64,000 nt of DNA from a bacterium (GTDB taxonomy: Bacteria > UBA8248): NCBI GenBank assembly GCA_965207065.1, contig OZ242260.1:3008001-3072000 (forward strand), given 5' to 3'. Positions 8,837-16,619 of this stretch are shown piece by piece. Every line of letters begins with the position of its first letter. The first letter of the stretch is position 1. A program made the position numbers and the translations under genes. The notes below the pieces were generated by a model that worked only from the letters and a program-made list of their open reading frames with translations, searched no databases and had not been told where the DNA came from.

Positions 8837-10909
8837 ATGAATCAGCCCCTGCAGAAGAACCGCCTCGCACAGGAGACGAGCCCGTACCTCTTGCAGCATC
8901 AATACAATCCGGTGCAGTGGTATCCCTGGGGCGAGGATGCGCTCCGCAAATCAAGAGAAGAGAACAAACCCATTTTCTTGTCCGTCGGCTATTCCGCCTG
9001 CCATTGGTGCCACGTGATGGAGCATGAGAGTTTCGAGGATGAGGGGATCGCTGAAATACTGAACAAGCATTTCGTTTCCATCAAGGTGGACCGGGAAGAA
9101 CGGCCTGATATCGACGGTATCTATATGGAAGCGGTGCAGATGATGACGGGCCAGGGCGGTTGGCCGATGAGCGTTTTCCTGCTCCCGGATTTGAGGCCCT
9201 TCTTCGGGGGCACGTATTTTCCGCCGGATGACAAATGGGGGAGGCCCGGCTTCAAAAACGTGCTCTTGAGGCTGGCCGAAGTTTATCAAACGAGACAGGA
9301 CGATTTGCATACGAACGCAGAAAGCATCACTGCGAATCTGCAGCAAATGGGGGTCGTAACGCCTGCGGAAGGTGATTTGAAAACGGAGTGGATCGACCAG
9401 GCCGCTCAGGAACTCAAAGATCGATTCGATTCCACCTGGGGCGGTTTCGGGAACGCTCCCAAATTCCCGCCCTCCATGGCGCTGATGCTACTTTTAAGAA
9501 AATGGAAGCGGTCCCCGGATCAGGAATTGCTGAAGATGGTCGAGATAACGCTTCAAAGAATGGCGCTGGGCGGGATGTATGATCAACTCGGCGGCGGTTT
9601 TCACCGCTACAGCGTGGATGCTTACTGGCTCATTCCGCACTTCGAGAAAATGCTTTATGACAACGGCCTTCTCGCCAGAGTCTACCTCGAGGCCTACCAG
9701 GCGACGGGAAGCGCGTTTTACCGCTCCGTGGTGGCGGATACCCTCGATTACGTTTTGCGCGAGATGACCAGCCCGGGCGGGGGATTCTACTCCGCGCAGG
9801 ACGCCGACAGCGAGGGTGAGGAGGGCAAGTTCTTCGTATGGCGTCCTGAGGAGATAGAAGAGATTCTCGGCAAAGAAGAAGCTGACATATTCTGCCGGTT
9901 CTACAGCGTGACGGAAGAGGGGAACTTCGAGGGCAAAACCTCCGCCTTGTTCATTCAGAAACCACCTCGCGTTTTCGCTGAGGAGTCGGGGATCACGGAG
10001 GAGAAGCTCTTTGAAGTCTTACAAAGAGGGCGCGCAAAACTCTTCGCCGAGCGGGAAAAACGTGTGAAACCTGGTCTGGACGATAAAATTCTTACGAGTT
10101 GGAACGGGCTCATGATCGGCTCGATGGCTATGGCGGGCAGGATTCTGGAACACCCCCCCTATGTGGAAGAAGCGGGCAAGGCGGCGGATTTTATTTTGAA
10201 CAACATGCGCGATGAACGCGGATTGCAGAGAAGCCACCGGGAGGGTGTGAGCAAGTTCAACGCGTATCTGGATGATTATGCTTTTCTGATCCTGGGCCTG
10301 GTAGATTTGTACGAGGCGAGCTTCGAGCCCCGGTGGATTCGAGCGGCCTCTGATTTGGCGCGGGAGATGATATCGCGCTATTGGGATGATGAAGGGGGCG
10401 CATTCTTCTTTACGGCCCACGATCATGAACAGCTCATCGTGAGGAAGAAGATGACGCAAGACGGCGCCGTTCCGAGCGGGAACTCGATGGCGGCGCTGGC
10501 GTTACTGAAGCTGGCGAAACTCTCGGGCGAGACGGAATTCGCAAAACGCGGCGAGGAAGTTTTGCGCTCGTTCGGCGATTATTTGGGCCGCGTTCCGGCC
10601 GCCTTCCACATGATGCTGGTGGCGCTTGATTTTCATCTGGATTCCCCGGTGGAGGTGGCGATTGTCGGTGAGAAAAACGCAGAAGATACACAAGCGGCCC
10701 TCAGGGTCGTTGATTCCCGCTTCATTCCCAATAAAGTATTGGCTCTCAAGTCCGAATCATCAGGCGAAGAAGCAGATGCCACAGTGCCTCTGCTCGATGG
10801 AAAGGCCATGGTGGAGGGACGAGCCGCCGTCTACTTGTGTGAAAATTTCACGTGCAAGGAGCCTCTTACGGACCTAAGCGCAATTGAGAAAGCGCTCGAG
10901 AGCGGTTGA
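8837..10909 (+). CDS. Thioredoxin domain-containing protein, YyaL/SPATA20 family
   Basis: [41 protein letters not shown] motifs. Confidence 0.95.
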
Positions 10910-11700: not shown

Positions 11701-12342
11701 CTAGTTTCGGTGCCTGGAGAATGCCTCACCAATGCTCATGCCTTTATCGAGTTCCGCGATGATTTTTTCTTCGATTTCCGCCAGCTCATCCATCTTGTCG
11801 ATGACTTCTTCGAGCCTTTCCCCGGGGATGACGACAACGCCGTTGACGTCGCCAAGAATGATGTCTCCCTGCCTCACCGCGACGCCCCCGCAATTGATCG
11901 GCTCTCCCACACTGATGGGAACCGTATACCCACCGCTGCCGTGAACCGATACCCCTCTGGCGAATACGGGAAAACCCGCCTGGCGGTGTTCTTCGATGTC
12001 CCTTGCCCTGCCGTCCAGGACGACGCCACCTAAATTCATCACCTTCGCGCGCGTGGTCATCATCCCGCCCCAGTTGGCCGTCGTGACTCCGGGCGGGATG
12101 CTGATGACGACGATGCTCCCCTCGGGCGCCGCGTCGATGTGGTGTACCTCGCGTTTGGGCAGCGGTCCGCCGCCGGCGGGAACCATTCGAACGTTATGGG
12201 CTTCCCCCACCATCCTGTAATCCGGGTCGGGCGACAACAGGATGATGTCGGGCATGTGGCCCCTGATTTTCAATTTGTCAAAAGCGTCCGCTACCTGACA
12301 GGCTGAATAGCCCCTTAAGCGATTTACCAAGTCATTGCTCAT
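11701..12342 (-). CDS. RraA family protein (HMG aldolase/oxaloacetate decarboxylase-like)
   Basis: VADA, WGGMM, DGRARD, FPVFARG, GDIILGDVNGVVVIP motifs. Confidence 0.88.
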   Translation of the reverse strand: MSNDLVNRLRGYSACQVADAFDKLKIRGHMPDIILLSPDPDYRMVGEAHNVRMVPAGGGPLPKREVHHIDAAPEGSIVVISIPPGVTTANWGGMMTTRAKVMNLGGVVLDGRARDIEEHRQAGFPVFARGVSVHGSGGYTVPISVGEPINCGGVAVRQGDIILGDVNGVVVIPGERLEEVIDKMDELAEIEEKIIAELDKGMSIGEAFSRHRN

Positions 12343-12427: not shown

Positions 12428-13180
12428 CTAAAAACGGAATTCCGTAAAGCGTACGCCATCCGGGTCGAGTTCCTCCAGGGCATCCAGTTCTTCGGCGCTT
12501 GGCGCGTGGGTTTGCGCCACGACGCTCGGGCGTTCCAGTTCGAAGCCGGTATTCTTGATCACTTCATCCACCGAGTGTCCAGGGTGAACACTGGCAATCT
12601 CGAGCCCGGTGGATTTTTTCTCGAACAAGGCAATGGGCGTCACCAAGTGGCTCAGTCTGCCTGATTGGGTAGAGAAGTCGACCCGGGGTACGAGAAATCG
12701 CCTGTCGTGCACAGTTCGCCATATGACGGTGCGTTTCACCTGAGGCATGATGACGGCGCCTCCCCCTCCACCGGGAAGCCTCACTTTCGGCTGGAACGGG
12801 TCGCCGATGTAGCTCATGTTGGCTCGCCCTTGTTTGTCGAGTTGAGCGGCTCCCAGGAAAGCCATGTCCACCCCGCCGCGCGCAAAAAGATCGTACATGT
12901 CCGGGTTGTAGAACATAGATGCCGCACCGTGGCAGAGTTCAGGGTCGGCCGTGCTGTTCGGCATGAAGCGCGGTTTTGGGTCCACCGAACCAGCGACTTC
13001 TATGAGCGAGCAATTGGGGGCATGTCGTTTCTTGGCCAAAAAGATCGCGATCATGGGAAGCGGGGAGTTAACCCCGTGAAACACATTCTCGCCGTCTTCG
13101 ATGAGGCGCGAGAGCGTGACGGCCATCTGGTTTCCGGCGCGGATTACGTGCTCGGGCAACGAGGCCAGGCGGCTGCCCAT
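12428..13180 (-). CDS. Class I CoA-transferase-fold beta subunit (GctB/IpdB/AibB-like)
   Basis: HAPN, FLGAAQLDKQGRANMS, VRLPGGGGG, VDF, LVTP, SVHPG, TGF, LDP motifs; starts 2 nt after the alpha-subunit stop. Confidence 0.88.
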   Translation of the reverse strand: MGSRLASLPEHVIRAGNQMAVTLSRLIEDGENVFHGVNSPLPMIAIFLAKKRHAPNCSLIEVAGSVDPKPRFMPNSTADPELCHGAASMFYNPDMYDLFARGGVDMAFLGAAQLDKQGRANMSYIGDPFQPKVRLPGGGGGAVIMPQVKRTVIWRTVHDRRFLVPRVDFSTQSGRLSHLVTPIALFEKKSTGLEIASVHPGHSVDEVIKNTGFELERPSVVAQTHAPSAEELDALEELDPDGVRFTEFRF

Positions 13181-13182
13181 CG

Positions 13183-14010
13183 CTAATTTGTCACCGCATC
13201 TTGTGCGTGTGATTCGTCGGTGCTGGCCAGATATTCCCGAAGCCCGTTCTGGCTTTGGGTCAAGGTCATGTAACGACTCATTTCAGTTTTGTCGACCCCA
13301 TAGTATGGGTGGCAACTGCAGGGAGACGCCCCGCCCGGCGTTTCCACGACTGCTTTGACGAGGAAGCCTGGAATAGTGGTTCTCTCCGGTTCCGCTGCGA
13401 TCTCTTCAGAGCCAACGATTTTTTCGGTCGTGAGAATGACCCCTTTTTGCGCCGCGCGCGTCATTTCAACGTCGAATTGCTGGTTGCCCAGGATTTGCGC
13501 GTTTCCCTGCGGGTCAGACTTCTGGACGTGTATCAATGCCCAGTCCGGCTTGAGAGCGGGAATCGCATAGAGTTCCTCTTTCGTGTAGGGGTCTTCCATC
13601 GTGAAGATGCCGCTTTGCTCCGGGATGTCGCTCCCGTCGAAACCGCGAATGGGCTGGAAGGGAACGCCGTAGGCTGCGGCCCGCAGCCCAGCAAGAACGC
13701 TGGCTCAGGCGTGCTCGGTCAGGCCGGCAAGTCCTTTCTCTATCGCCTTCCGGTAGTGAGGCGCCAATCCGAATTCCGCCTCGAAGGTGACGATGCCGCT
13801 GATGATTCTCTTCACGGCCCCTGCGGCGCAAAGGAGATCGGCGTCGTAACCGGGAGAGGGTTTGATGAGCGTGAGATCCCGAAGGTCCGCGCGCGCGATT
13901 TCACGGATGAGGGCGGCGGGCGTTCTGTGCAAGAGGGTGCCGCCGGGACTTATTGCGTCTCCTCCTTCAATGAGAGAAACGGCTTCTCGTAAGGACATTT
14001 GCTTGCTCAT
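13183..14010 (-). CDS. Class I CoA-transferase-fold alpha subunit (GctA/IpdA-like) with an in-frame UGA at codon 102; predicted selenoprotein
   Basis: Track ORFs 13705..14055 and 13183..13599 share a frame and are joined by a single TGA (13705-13707). Read-through gives TEHA-U-ASVLAGLRAAAYGVPFQPIRGFDGSDIP, the continuous family motif. 275 aa. Confidence 0.85.
13670..13704 (-). promoter_or_regulatory. Candidate bacterial SECIS element
   Basis: mRNA UGA-14 nt-UGGGCUGCG[GGC]CGCAGCCUA forms a 9-bp stem with a G-initial loop 23 nt after the UGA. Confidence 0.6.
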
Positions 14011-14242
14011 GGCAGCTTCCATCCACTCGTTTTGGGCGCATGATGTGGGCAACACAAATTATGGGGCATAGTTTAACAAATGTTGATGATTTGTGCTTGC
14101 GCTCATGCGCCTTCATGCCGTCAGAGAAGTGAATTTGACGCATTCATTGACCGAGAACCCGGTGTGGCGTAAATATCGATGAGATGAGAGTTGCTCTCAT
14201 GCGCAAGTATACTTCCAGATGAATCAATCGAAGGAGCATGGA

Positions 14243-14755
14243 ATGCCACGGATTTCCTTGTTAGAGCCCGAGCAGGCGGAAGCATCCGCGAAACGCATCA
14301 TGGAGAATCTGAAAAAACAATTCGGTGTCGTGATTCCGCCTGTGAAGGCACTGGCCCACAAACCGGATTTTTTGCGTTCTTTGCTGAGCTTGACCACGGT
14401 GGCGGACGGCCCGGGGGAGATCGACGTCGGCTTCAAGGAAATCTTGAACATTCGCGCATCGGTGCTCAACGGGTGTCATTTTTGCACCAACATGCATTCC
14501 AACATGGCAAGGATGCACAAGGCAGGAGACGAGAAGACGAAAGCCGCGCAAGAGGGTTCCTCGAGTGACGTCTTCGATGAGAAGGAGAAGGCGGCGCTTC
14601 GCCTTTGCGAGGAGAGCACGCAGGGGGTGAGCGTTTCGGACGGGACGTTTGAAGCGCTGAAGGCACACTATTCTGAAGCGCAGATAGTGGAGCTTCTCGG
14701 CGCCATCGCACTCATCAACACCTGGAATCGACTGATCGTGGGAATGGGCTTTTAA
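14243..14755 (+). CDS. AhpD/carboxymuconolactone decarboxylase family protein
   Basis: E....RAS.LNGCHFCTNMH (CxxC..H) and INTWNR motifs; SD AAGGAG before ATG 14243. Confidence 0.9.
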   Translation: MPRISLLEPEQAEASAKRIMENLKKQFGVVIPPVKALAHKPDFLRSLLSLTTVADGPGEIDVGFKEILNIRASVLNGCHFCTNMHSNMARMHKAGDEKTKAAQEGSSSDVFDEKEKAALRLCEESTQGVSVSDGTFEALKAHYSEAQIVELLGAIALINTWNRLIVGMGF

Positions 14756-14802: not shown

Positions 14803-15981
14803 TTAGAGGCTTAATGCGGCCCTGCTGACCGTGAGTTCGGTTTCTCCGAGAAGCTCCGATGTCGTGAGTTTACCGCTCATCACCGCTATCAGTTCTTTTT
14901 CGAGCAGATCTCTCGCCTCATCGATTCGCATCGTCCCCTCCATGACGCCGCTGATGTCCACGTCGATGTTCTCGGCCATCGACCGCGCGGTACGGGGATT
15001 GCCGGTCACTTTGATGGTGGGAGAGATGGGATGGCCGATGGGGTTGCCGATTCCGGTCGAGAAAACGATCGCCTGCGCTCCGCTGGCCGCCAAAGAGGAA
15101 ATGTTCTCTACGCCCGCGCAGGGAGCGTCGGCGAAGATGGTGCCTTTCTTCGAAGGACGCTCTCCCACACCGACGACTTCGACAATGGGGTGACTGCCCG
15201 CTTTCTTGATGGCTCCCAGGCTTTTCTCCTCGATGGACGACAGACCGCCCCGGATGTTATCCGGCGCCGGGTTCGAGCCGATGAAGTCGACGCCGATGCT
15301 TTCGGCGTAATCGACGGCGCTCTTTGCGGAATCGATGATTTTTCGCGCCGTTTTTTTGTTTGTAGCCCGGCGGGCGAGTAGATGCTCGGCGCCCACGATT
15401 TCCAGCGTCTCGGAAAAGATAACCGAACCCCCCGCTTCCACGACTCTGTCGGCGACCATGCCCGTCACGGGGTTCGAGATGACGCCGCTGGTCGTATCCG
15501 AGCCTCCGCATTCCGCCCCGATGGTGAGTTCGCCCAACTCACAGCGGACTCGCTTGGCCGATGCGAGATGGGCGGAAAGTTTCGTGGCGAGTTCCACGAC
15601 ATGCGAGGTGGTGCTGAGCGTGCCTCCAATCTCCTGGATGTTCACGGCTTCTATGGGCATCCAGGGAGACGTTTTTGCGGCTACTTCCGCGATGGCGTTG
15701 GCGCTCTTGGGTTCGAGGCTCACGATGATGGCGGCCCCGACGTTCGGGTGGGCGGCGGTGTGTCCCATAACCCGCCAGTGTTGCGTCTCGTCCTCGCCCA
15801 TCAGGGCGCGTCCGAACGAGGTGTTGACAGGGGTGGCGTCTCGCACCAGCGAACCGATTCTGCGGACGATGGGGTTGGAATTGTCCATTCCGCTGACGAT
15901 GGCGAGATGATTCCGGCCACCCGGAGGACCTTCAAGTCTCCTGTAGCCCCAGAAAGTGGGAGTTGCTTTTTTCCGGGCCAT
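14803..15981 (-). CDS. UxaA/GarD family dehydratase large subunit, SuyB (sulfolactate sulfo-lyase beta)-like
   Basis: FWGYRR, HPNVGA, ECGGSDTTSG, SNP, FSET, NIRGGLSSIEEKSLG, FSTG.GNP motifs. Confidence 0.85.
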   Translation of the reverse strand: MARKKATPTFWGYRRLEGPPGGRNHLAIVSGMDNSNPIVRRIGSLVRDATPVNTSFGRALMGEDETQHWRVMGHTAAHPNVGAAIIVSLEPKSANAIAEVAAKTSPWMPIEAVNIQEIGGTLSTTSHVVELATKLSAHLASAKRVRCELGELTIGAECGGSDTTSGVISNPVTGMVADRVVEAGGSVIFSETLEIVGAEHLLARRATNKKTARKIIDSAKSAVDYAESIGVDFIGSNPAPDNIRGGLSSIEEKSLGAIKKAGSHPIVEVVGVGERPSKKGTIFADAPCAGVENISSLAASGAQAIVFSTGIGNPIGHPISPTIKVTGNPRTARSMAENIDVDISGVMEGTMRIDEARDLLEKELIAVMSGKLTTSELLGETELTVSRAALSL

Positions 15982-15983
15982 GC

Positions 15984-16256
15984 CTAGCCTCTTGTGCTCT
16001 TGATGTTATGGACGTGAACGTGACAGCCTGCGGGTATTTCTTGTGTGGCGGTGCCGATGACCTCGCCGTATTTGAGCACTTTTGCGTTCGAGCGGATCTT
16101 GCGCAGCGCAATTTTGTGTCCAAATGGAATGGATTCAGTTGCGGATAGCGTGATTGTCTCATCCCCGCCTTCGATTTCCACGCTATGCCCTGAGGAGACG
16201 TCCTCGAGAACAGTGGCCACGTTGTCTTTCGGGTGCATCACCAGCGCTCGGCTCAT
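15984..16256 (-). CDS. Stand-alone SAF domain, UxaA small subunit (SuyA-like)
   Basis: HPKDNVA, IPFGHKIAL, KYGEVIG, HVHVHN motifs. Confidence 0.92.
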   Translation of the reverse strand: MSRALVMHPKDNVATVLEDVSSGHSVEIEGGDETITLSATESIPFGHKIALRKIRSNAKVLKYGEVIGTATQEIPAGCHVHVHNIKSTRG

Positions 16257-16277: not shown

Positions 16278-16619
16278 CTAGTCGTCGCTTCCGACATTAC
16301 CGGGGAGCCTCAACCGCAGCCGCTCGACGGGGCGGCCGTTTTTCAAGTGTTCCTCGATGACTTCGGGAACGTCCTCCACCTTTACGCCCGTGTACCAGAC
16401 GCCCTCGGGGTAGACGACCAGGGTGGGGCCCATCGTGCACGGACCCAGACAAGTGGCGCCTGCCATGGCCGTATCCGAGGCGAGTTCGTCATCCGAGCCA
16501 ATCGCCTCCGTGATCGCTTGCGCGACCTCGATGCTGCCCTTGCTCTGGCAACAGCCCATCGGGTGAGTCGGCGGGCGTTGATTGATGCAGACGAAAACGT
16601 GTCTTTTGATGTGTTCCAC
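16278..16619 (-). CDS. Thioredoxin-like [2Fe-2S] ferredoxin
   Basis: HVFVC...GCC...CLGPC..GP..VVYPEGVWY, EHL.NG motifs; GTG start after SD GAGG. Confidence 0.92.
   Translation of the reverse strand: MEHIKRHVFVCINQRPPTHPMGCCQSKGSIEVAQAITEAIGSDDELASDTAMAGATCLGPCTMGPTLVVYPEGVWYTGVKVEDVPEVIEEHLKNGRPVERLRLRLPGNVGSDD

Follow-up and report, generated by a model that had tools for sequence, protein, structure and literature searches.

Class I coenzyme A (CoA)-transferases of the glutaconate type (Gct) are alpha/beta heterodimers in which a glutamate of the beta subunit carries CoA as a thioester; PMC5380842 names this residue, Glu54-beta of GctB, as catalytically essential. Two described relatives lack this glutamate. 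AibAB of Myxococcus xanthus (PDB 5mzw and 5n00-5n03) is a 3-methylglutaconyl-CoA decarboxylase in which Cys56B of AibB stands in for the conserved catalytic Glu of glutaconate CoA-transferases (PMC7756340), and IpdAB of Rhodococcus jostii RHA1 and Mycobacterium tuberculosis (6co6, 6co9, 6coj and 6con) is a retro-Claisen hydrolase of COCHEA-CoA that has no CoA-transferase activity and carries Gly57-beta at the equivalent position (PMC5380842; for both activities, PMC7756340, PMC5380842 and PMC6678751). Here we analysed a stretch of 64,000 nucleotides (nt) from a bacterium (GTDB lineage Bacteria; UBA8248), positions 3,008,001 to 3,072,000 of the forward strand of contig OZ242260.1 in GenBank assembly GCA_965207065.1, which we refer to as the window. 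It encodes a further heterodimer of this fold, with a valine in place of the beta glutamate and an in-frame UGA in the alpha gene. A sequence-only reading of the window had pointed to the valine and had stated that members without the glutamate are not transferases, which the three papers bear out for AibAB and IpdAB. We propose that the window pair probably represents a selenium-dependent enzyme of a new kind and not a transferase. With fair confidence, we favour a Gct/AibAB/IpdAB-like enzyme that does not depend on the beta glutamate for transfer and uses selenocysteine (Sec) or cysteine at alpha position 102 as its catalytic residue; our confidence in any particular chemistry is much lower. 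The features that bear on this proposal are as follows.

12428..13180, minus strand: gene for the beta subunit of the glutaconate-CoA-transferase-like heterodimer, 250 amino acids and a TAG stop; contains KKRHAPNCSLIEVAGSVDP.
12995..12997, minus strand: codon of Val62, in the column of GctB Glu54 and AibB Cys56.
12998..13000, minus strand: codon of Glu61, the 'shifted' Glu, clade-specific and variable across the family.
13183..14010, minus strand: gene for the alpha subunit, 275 amino acids through one TGA, with a TAG stop at 13183-13185.
13705..13707, minus strand: the in-frame TGA, read as Sec102 in the motif E99-H100-A101-U102; Cys alternates with it in relatives.
13672..13688, minus strand: core of a hairpin resembling a selenocysteine insertion sequence (SECIS), with a stem of 7 base pairs (bp), GGCUGCG/CGCAGCC, and a GGC loop, 20-36 nt counted from the U of the UGA.

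The beta subunit matches the CoA_trans family of Pfam (PF01144) with an E value of 7.4e-19 and 68.4 bits, the cut-off of this family being 23 bits. Its solved relatives in HMMER searches are AibB (6.8e-35), GctB (9.8e-22) and IpdB (1.3e-6), and its predicted model, with a mean predicted local distance difference test (pLDDT) score of 76.9, resembles the same three proteins in Foldseek (TMq 0.81, 0.76 and 0.75, respectively). The column of the catalytic glutamate was located by two routes. The motif aligns without a gap to AibB (5mzw_D, E 6.8e-35), and Val62 lies at the only position where the AibB entries 5mzw and 5n00-5n03 differ from one another; the PDB titles of these entries name C56A, C56S, C56N and C56V variants. 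The five best direct PDB alignments of the beta subunit were all to AibB variants, and the GctB column was reached via a Gct-type paralogue in the same genome (contig C1, 144962-145786, motif HAPGVTILFEGG), whose Glu aligns both with the Glu of GctB (1poi_B, YAPDCHIIVESG; E 1.7e-43) and with Val62 of the window protein. By these alignments, and for IpdB by the residue equivalence given in PMC5380842, Val62 is the counterpart of GctB Glu54, AibB Cys56 and IpdB Gly57. The earlier placement of a Val at 12995-12997 where GctB has Glu54, with a Glu one residue before it, is therefore confirmed by both routes, and the GctB motif quoted in that reading, including its catalytic Glu54, agrees with 1poi_B and with what PMC5380842 says of that residue.

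The replacement is not peculiar to the window. Column 62 is V or I in every one of the 119 homologues that span the motif, out of the 120 best beta homologues in the database, at all 80 loci that were fetched from genome_contigs and in 93 of 93 non-redundant betas. Relatives of the pair were found in Nitrospinota, Tectomicrobia, Chloroflexota, Methylomirabilia, Thermodesulfobacteriota, Betaproteobacteria, Vicinamibacterales, Bacillus and Methylobacterium. The glutamate that forms the thioester in the transferases, which is Glu54 in GctB and lies in an S-E-N-G motif in the SCOT type, is thus absent from the window beta at the position where it is expected. The surrounding frame, HAP-x6-[E/V]-x-G, is common to the window pair and the Gct type. 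A loop of the beta subunit is likewise retained: P136, G137, G138 and G140 are each conserved in at least 97% of the 93 betas and align with the stretch PGVAGA of AibB. This stretch would hold the Ala133/Gly134 that are placed against the substrate enolate in AibAB, according to PMC7756340.

The alpha gene ends 2 nt before the ATG of the beta gene. Its start, the ATG at 14010, was picked by alignment, and a GTG at 14055 upstream is also open. The protein matches PF01144 (E 6.2e-21, 75.2 bits), and its solved relatives are AibA (3.2e-32), IpdA (8e-32) and GctA (1.6e-31). In Foldseek, the alpha model (mean pLDDT 81.1; one of five models confident) gave TMq values of 0.85 for IpdA (6con_A), 0.83 for GctA and 0.80 for AibA. 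Codon 102 of the partner alpha could be read at 76 of the 80 loci, the alpha of the remaining four being poorly aligned or cut by contig ends; it is TGA in 41 and TGC or TGT in 35, and no other codon occurs there. Among 88 non-redundant alphas, column 102 holds U in 39 and C in 49, and the residues that precede it are nearly fixed (E99 in 88, H100 in 83 and A101 in 87).

In the UGA genes, a hairpin follows the UGA at 18-37 nt, in one of two registers, with its apex about 27-29 nt after the UGA. The register GG(C/A)UGCG-GGC-CGCA(G/U)CC is found in Nitrospinota, Chloroflexota and Methylomirabilia, and the sequences from Chloroflexota and Methylomirabilia show compensatory changes from C:G to A:U. 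The second register, GGGGCUGC...GCAGCCUC, lies 18-35 nt after the UGA in metagenome-assembled genomes of Betaproteobacteria (loci L034, L040, L042, L051, L066 and L067) and seems to meet the hairpin requirement independently. Of 37 non-redundant UGA genes, 33 have a perfect 7-bp helix in either register, versus none of 35 Cys genes (Fisher 2e-12, from counts that ignore relatedness and registers that were derived from the UGA sequences themselves). The UGA genes L043, L054, L060 and L081 have only a 5-bp helix. The Cys genes encode a near-identical peptide, A-G-L-R-A-A, via other synonymous codons. The genome encodes SelA (3e-155), SelB (2.2e-115), SelD (7.8e-100) and a tRNA-SeC with the anticodon tca. 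Because TGA alternates with Cys codons, the hairpin is specific to UGA genes and the Sec machinery is present in the genome, we conclude, on sequence evidence, that the alpha UGA does encode Sec. The sequence-only reading had seen support for a functional UGA in the loss of the beta glutamate; its view of the UGA stands, on the evidence just given, and the loss by itself does not prove it. The gene resembles other bacterial selenoprotein genes in the alternation of UGA and Cys at one codon, in the downstream hairpin (bacterial SECIS, bSECIS) and in the presence of SelA, SelB, SelD and tRNA-Sec, and is unlike them in that the host protein has a CoA-transferase fold. The SelD match, which lies outside the window (C1:543537-544499, minus strand), contains one in-frame TGA of its own, and SelD is probably itself a selenoprotein.

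To place residue 102 in the fold, two IpdA entries can be compared. Their sequences, 6co6_A and 6coj_A, differ exactly at the column that aligns with U102 (REMDEGMV versus REMDAGMV), and the title of 6coj is 'IpdAB E105A COCHEA-COA complex'; because of this, the alignment identifies U102 with IpdA Glu105. The same column is Gly in AibA and Gln in GctA. In the predicted alpha model, U102 opens the helix 102-113, right after the strand 96-99. Reactive thiolates and selenolates are typically placed at a helix N-terminus.

We found that the state of beta column 62 and that of alpha column 102 go together. The genome holds five PF01144 pairs. Two are of the SCOT type and keep the beta Glu (AENG or SENG), with alpha column 102 being Gln in one and falling in an alignment gap in the other. 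The Gct-type pair combines beta Glu62 with alpha His102, the window pair Val62 with Sec102 and a Cys-type paralogue Ile62 with Cys102. A beta search over 51 genomes of the phylum found three groups of relatives, and the 40 of these places that were fetched gave the same picture. The 25 sampled Gct-type betas, which all come from this one phylum, have Glu62 throughout, and column 102 of the partner alpha is His in 22 pairs, Asn in 2 and unaligned in one. All 15 betas of the Cys-type paralogue have I or V at column 62; Cys was found in 13 of their alphas and, for the other two, none was found in the fetched stretch. Every V/I62 beta with a readable partner is accompanied by Cys or Sec at alpha 102, and among the sampled pairs (the same genome and the 40 phylum places) none combines beta Glu62 with alpha Cys/Sec102. 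The co-occurrence that had been put forward for checking therefore has no exception in the sampled pairs, yet it corresponds to a single split on the tree: in a FastTree phylogeny of 80 betas (every second locus of L003-L082, plus L083-L122 and the window), 55 V/I tips are separated from 25 Glu tips by one split, with a support of 1.0 on the Glu side. Inside the V/I clade, tips with Sec and tips with Cys are intermingled. The resulting sequence rule is that glutaconate-type transferases have beta Glu62 with His, Asn or Gln in alpha, and that the family described here has V or I at beta 62 with E-H-A-U/C in alpha.

Two of the pairs deserve a further word. The Gct-type pair (L123; C1:144962-146816, minus strand), whose beta has GctB as its best PDB match, is conserved across the phylum and is probably a true glutaconate-type CoA-transferase. 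The Cys-type paralogue (L124 and L125; C1:840115-841937, minus strand; alpha VEHACST, beta YLNIPGG) adjoins a PfkB kinase gene, has two Amidohydro_2 genes further downstream and has orthologues in most genomes of the phylum.

The window pair shares features with each of the described systems and matches none of them. AibAB is the closest solved relative of the beta subunit (32% identity) and has the same alpha-then-beta order in a glutaconate-CoA-transferase-type heterodimer that has lost the canonical beta Glu and is not a transferase (PMC7756340); the window beta even has the same Val as the active C56V variant of AibB. AibAB differs in having Cys56 where the window has Val62, Gly where the window has Sec102, and no selenium, and the proposed proton relay of AibB, Glu72, has Ala78 near its column in the window, beside an alignment gap. 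IpdAB is the best structural match of alpha, and its beta likewise lacks the Glu, having Gly57-beta instead; the IpdB alignment of the window beta misses the motif. Cys-type relatives of the window pair often have an enoyl-CoA-hydratase-like gene nearby, and IpdAB acts after the crotonase EchA20 (PMC5380842). Where IpdA has the carboxylate of Glu105, however, all 88 family alphas have Sec or Cys and never Glu; the window beta is only distantly similar to IpdB (E 1.3e-6, over the C-terminal half); and the window locus has no steroid-catabolic gene context. GctAB of Acidaminococcus fermentans (1poi) and other Gct-type pairs share the fold and the subunit order, and differ in combining GctB Glu54 with a Gln at column 102 of GctA, versus Val62 and Sec102 in the window.

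The genes around the pair were considered as a guide to its substrate, and none could be assigned from them. In the window these genes are:

11701..12342, minus strand: RraA-like gene (aldolase/oxaloacetate-decarboxylase family; PF03737, 5.2e-31), 85 nt downstream of beta.
14219..14755, plus strand: CMD/AhpD-like protein with a CxxC motif (GCHFC; PF02627, 5.1e-14), divergent from alpha.
14803-16256, minus strand: split altronate/galactarate-dehydratase-like enzyme, made up of a 90-amino-acid SAF subunit and a 392-amino-acid GD_AH subunit.
16278-16619: small gene preceding the SAF/GD_AH pair, with a match to thioredoxin-like 2Fe-2S ferredoxin that is below the Pfam cut-off.

The RraA-like gene follows beta in 21 loci (64-96% identity), and its product is below the cut-off of every NCBIfam model. 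The CMD/AhpD-like gene is found upstream of alpha in 21 loci, all of them of the Nitrospinota/Tectomicrobia type; its best NCBIfam match, 'YciW-related (seleno)protein', is weak (78 bits against a cut-off of 310). The split SAF and GD_AH architecture resembles that of sulfolactate sulfo-lyase SuyAB, and the two genes accompany alpha and beta in none but the closest 15-16 loci. The Cys-type loci have other neighbours. Within 4 kb of the pair, a family III CoA-transferase gene is present in 22 of 35 such loci, a gene for a ligase that forms adenosine monophosphate (AMP) in 31 and at least one of the two in 33, and an enoyl-CoA-hydratase-like gene is often found between these genes. The Cys-type pair fits the processing of a thioester, because a dedicated CoA-activating enzyme adjoins it. 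Neither the window at large nor the surroundings of the Cys-type paralogue revealed a coherent pathway, and context varies between clades.

How, then, might such an enzyme work? The residue to which true class I CoA-transferases bind CoA as a thioester is replaced by V or I across the family, and ping-pong transfer would be ruled out, because Cys or Sec would be unable to form a thioester with the thiol of CoA. Most likely, a CoA thioester would be bound at the subunit interface and its acyl part transformed, as in AibAB and IpdAB. Sec/Cys102 would then most likely serve as the catalytic nucleophile, attacking either a carbonyl, that of the thioester or of a beta-keto group, or, in an enoyl thioester, the beta-carbon; this could form an acyl-selenoester or a Michael adduct or bring about a thiolase-like retro-Claisen cleavage. 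The beta subunit would supply substrate binding and the oxyanion loop, with the nucleophile coming from elsewhere. In the clade of the window, the product may feed the co-transcribed RraA-like aldolase/decarboxylase. More specifically, but only tentatively, we suggest a new class of CoA-transferase-fold enzymes in which an alpha selenolate or thiolate replaces both the beta Glu of the transferases and the alpha Glu of IpdAB; catalysis on the CoA thioester would be covalent, via an acyl-selenoester or an Se-adduct at the beta-keto or enoyl carbon, and would lead to thiolase-like C-C cleavage or isomerisation. The sequence-only reading had held that catalysis has moved to the alpha Sec and that the reaction is not a transfer. 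Each computational test that could have contradicted this reading favoured it, and its premises are well borne out, as the beta Glu is lost family-wide and Sec/Cys102 is invariant; the move of catalysis to Sec102 itself is what these premises suggest.

Several observations weigh against this proposal. The residue at the position of the Glu in AibB is dispensable, according to PMC7756340, and for this reason the lack of a nucleophile at beta 62 says little about where catalysis takes place. The association between loss of the Glu and gain of Cys or Sec is one evolutionary event, because a single tree split separates both types, and it offers no replicated proof of functional coupling. Sec102 sits at the place of IpdA Glu105, which we take to be the proposed catalytic residue of IpdAB, the alignments showing only that the depositors mutated it, and how far Sec102 lies from the thioester site and from beta residue 62 is judged by homology only. 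A CoA-activating gene is nearby in only 2 of the 41 Sec-type loci, the window included, and a CoA-thioester substrate therefore lacks support from gene context in the Sec-type clades; for the window pair, such a substrate is suggested by homology and by the conserved P136-G140 loop of beta. As for the RNA, the 76 nt after the UGA, folded alone, are no more stable than shuffled sequences (z = 0.49), and the folding energies of non-redundant U and C genes differ modestly (-15.0 versus -12.2 kcal/mol, p = 0.004). Finally, Sec is mostly used in redox enzymes, and most known selenoproteins are oxidoreductases; this usage and the CxxC AhpD-like neighbour conserved in 21 loci would both suit a redox role.

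Such a role is the first alternative to be weighed. Sec/Cys102 could cycle through a selenenyl-sulfide whose partner is a protein Cys, CoA-SH or the CxxC AhpD-like protein, as in the reduction or desulfurisation of a CoA-linked substrate. Candidates for a resolving cysteine exist in alpha itself, where Cys61 (81 of 88) and Cys233 (78 of 88) are frequent, and the thioredoxin-like 2Fe-2S ferredoxin gene is nearby, with its match below the Pfam cut-off. However, no second Cys is invariant among the 88 non-redundant alphas, the AhpD-like neighbour is confined to loci of the Nitrospinota/Tectomicrobia type, and the Pfam scan gave no flavin, nicotinamide adenine dinucleotide (NAD) or metal-cluster domain in alpha or beta. 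The Cys-type relatives, moreover, are flanked by genes for a CoA ligase, a family III transferase and a hydratase-like protein, which are typical of non-redox thioester catabolism. On balance we consider thiol or selenol exchange to be improbable, though worth keeping in mind.

A second alternative keeps the substrate and changes the role of the residue: Sec/Cys102 would act as a general acid/base, with no covalent catalysis, in an enzyme that decarboxylates or isomerises an unsaturated dicarboxyl-CoA in the manner of AibAB. AibB is the closest solved relative of beta, both by sequence and in Foldseek, and AibAB shows that the fold can support decarboxylation, with a Cys as the proposed proton donor (PMC7756340). 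The catalytic pair of AibB nevertheless appears not to be kept in the window protein, where Val62 stands at the column of Cys56 and Ala78 near that of Glu72, beside an alignment gap, and the Sec or Cys of the family is on the other subunit than AibB Cys56. A selenol is largely deprotonated at neutral pH, which makes it a poor proton donor and a good nucleophile. We therefore regard acid/base catalysis by residue 102 as quite unlikely.

Slightly less probable still is an ordinary class I CoA-transferase in which Glu61 has taken over from the missing Glu and forms the enzyme-CoA thioester, Sec102 being accessory. The fold and the glycine loop are retained, and the window has a Glu at position 61, as do 22 of the 93 non-redundant betas, all of them from the Nitrospinota/Tectomicrobia-type clade. 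The remaining 71 have N (64), T (4), S (2) or G (1); the glycine is that of L027, where the RraA-like gene is still downstream of beta. The motif is ungapped between the fixed anchors HAP ... G in four families. In the predicted beta model, the strand 58-61 includes Glu61 and Val62 comes right after it, so that the side chain of Glu61 should point to the face opposite residue 62. A shifted Glu61 as the catalytic nucleophile is thus unlikely, because column 61 is not conserved and Glu61 lies in the predicted strand before Val62, and it would leave the invariant Sec/Cys102 without explanation. That a functional shifted Glu might overturn the non-transferase interpretation had been recognised at the outset; the variable column and the predicted strand speak against it. 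A Ser at column 61 occurs in L022 (motif LISVAG), a contig of 2043 nt that has no room for a partner alpha upstream of beta; a Cys-type alpha-like gene elsewhere on the same short contig could belong to a second tandem pair.

That the TGA is a plain stop, alpha a broken gene and beta a functionless relic is scarcely credible: translation table 11 does split alpha into two open reading frames, and the downstream RNA folded alone is not unusually stable, but 41 loci of several phyla share the TGA at this codon, in a frame that is otherwise free of stops, and the others have Cys there; the hairpin is confined to the TGA genes, the genome has a full set of Sec machinery and both subunits are conserved at the protein level.

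We return to the favoured interpretation, a non-transferase with Sec/Cys102 as its catalytic residue, and to what it would mean. Neither alpha nor beta scores above the cut-off of any NCBIfam model. Full-text literature searches, which did not take in the family lists of the selenoprotein catalogues, turned up no description of a CoA-transferase-like protein with Sec. The BSepDB catalogue places Nitrospinota of the type of the window among the organisms richest in selenoprotein genes, and its main text names no CoA-transferase family (PMC13326102). The CoA-transferase fold has been re-used at least twice for chemistry other than transfer, in AibAB and IpdAB, and the family would add another instance, in which the other subunit supplies a different catalytic residue. 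If the interpretation is correct, this would be a fourth catalytic solution in the fold, after the beta Glu of Gct, the substrate-assisted or beta-Cys catalysis of AibAB and the alpha Glu of IpdAB, and a rare non-redox use of selenocysteine. With Sec and Cys forms interspersed on the tree, the family offers a natural test case for the choice between selenium and sulfur in what is possibly not an oxidoreductase. In practical terms, gene callers end the Sec forms at the UGA, and alpha is therefore likely to be mis-annotated in genomes that use Sec.

Two further observations concern the surroundings of such pairs. In the window, a gene at 8837-10909 on the plus strand encodes a 690-amino-acid DUF255/thioredoxin-domain protein (YyaL-like); it lies just downstream of an RlpA-like lipoprotein gene and is kept in the nearest relative, L003. 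The betaproteobacterial Sec-type pair of L034 (5622-7416, minus strand) has a context unlike that of all other loci: it stands beside AtuA and DUF4387 genes, of the acyclic terpene utilisation family, and its further neighbours are two TctC receptor genes and an alpha/beta hydrolase gene.

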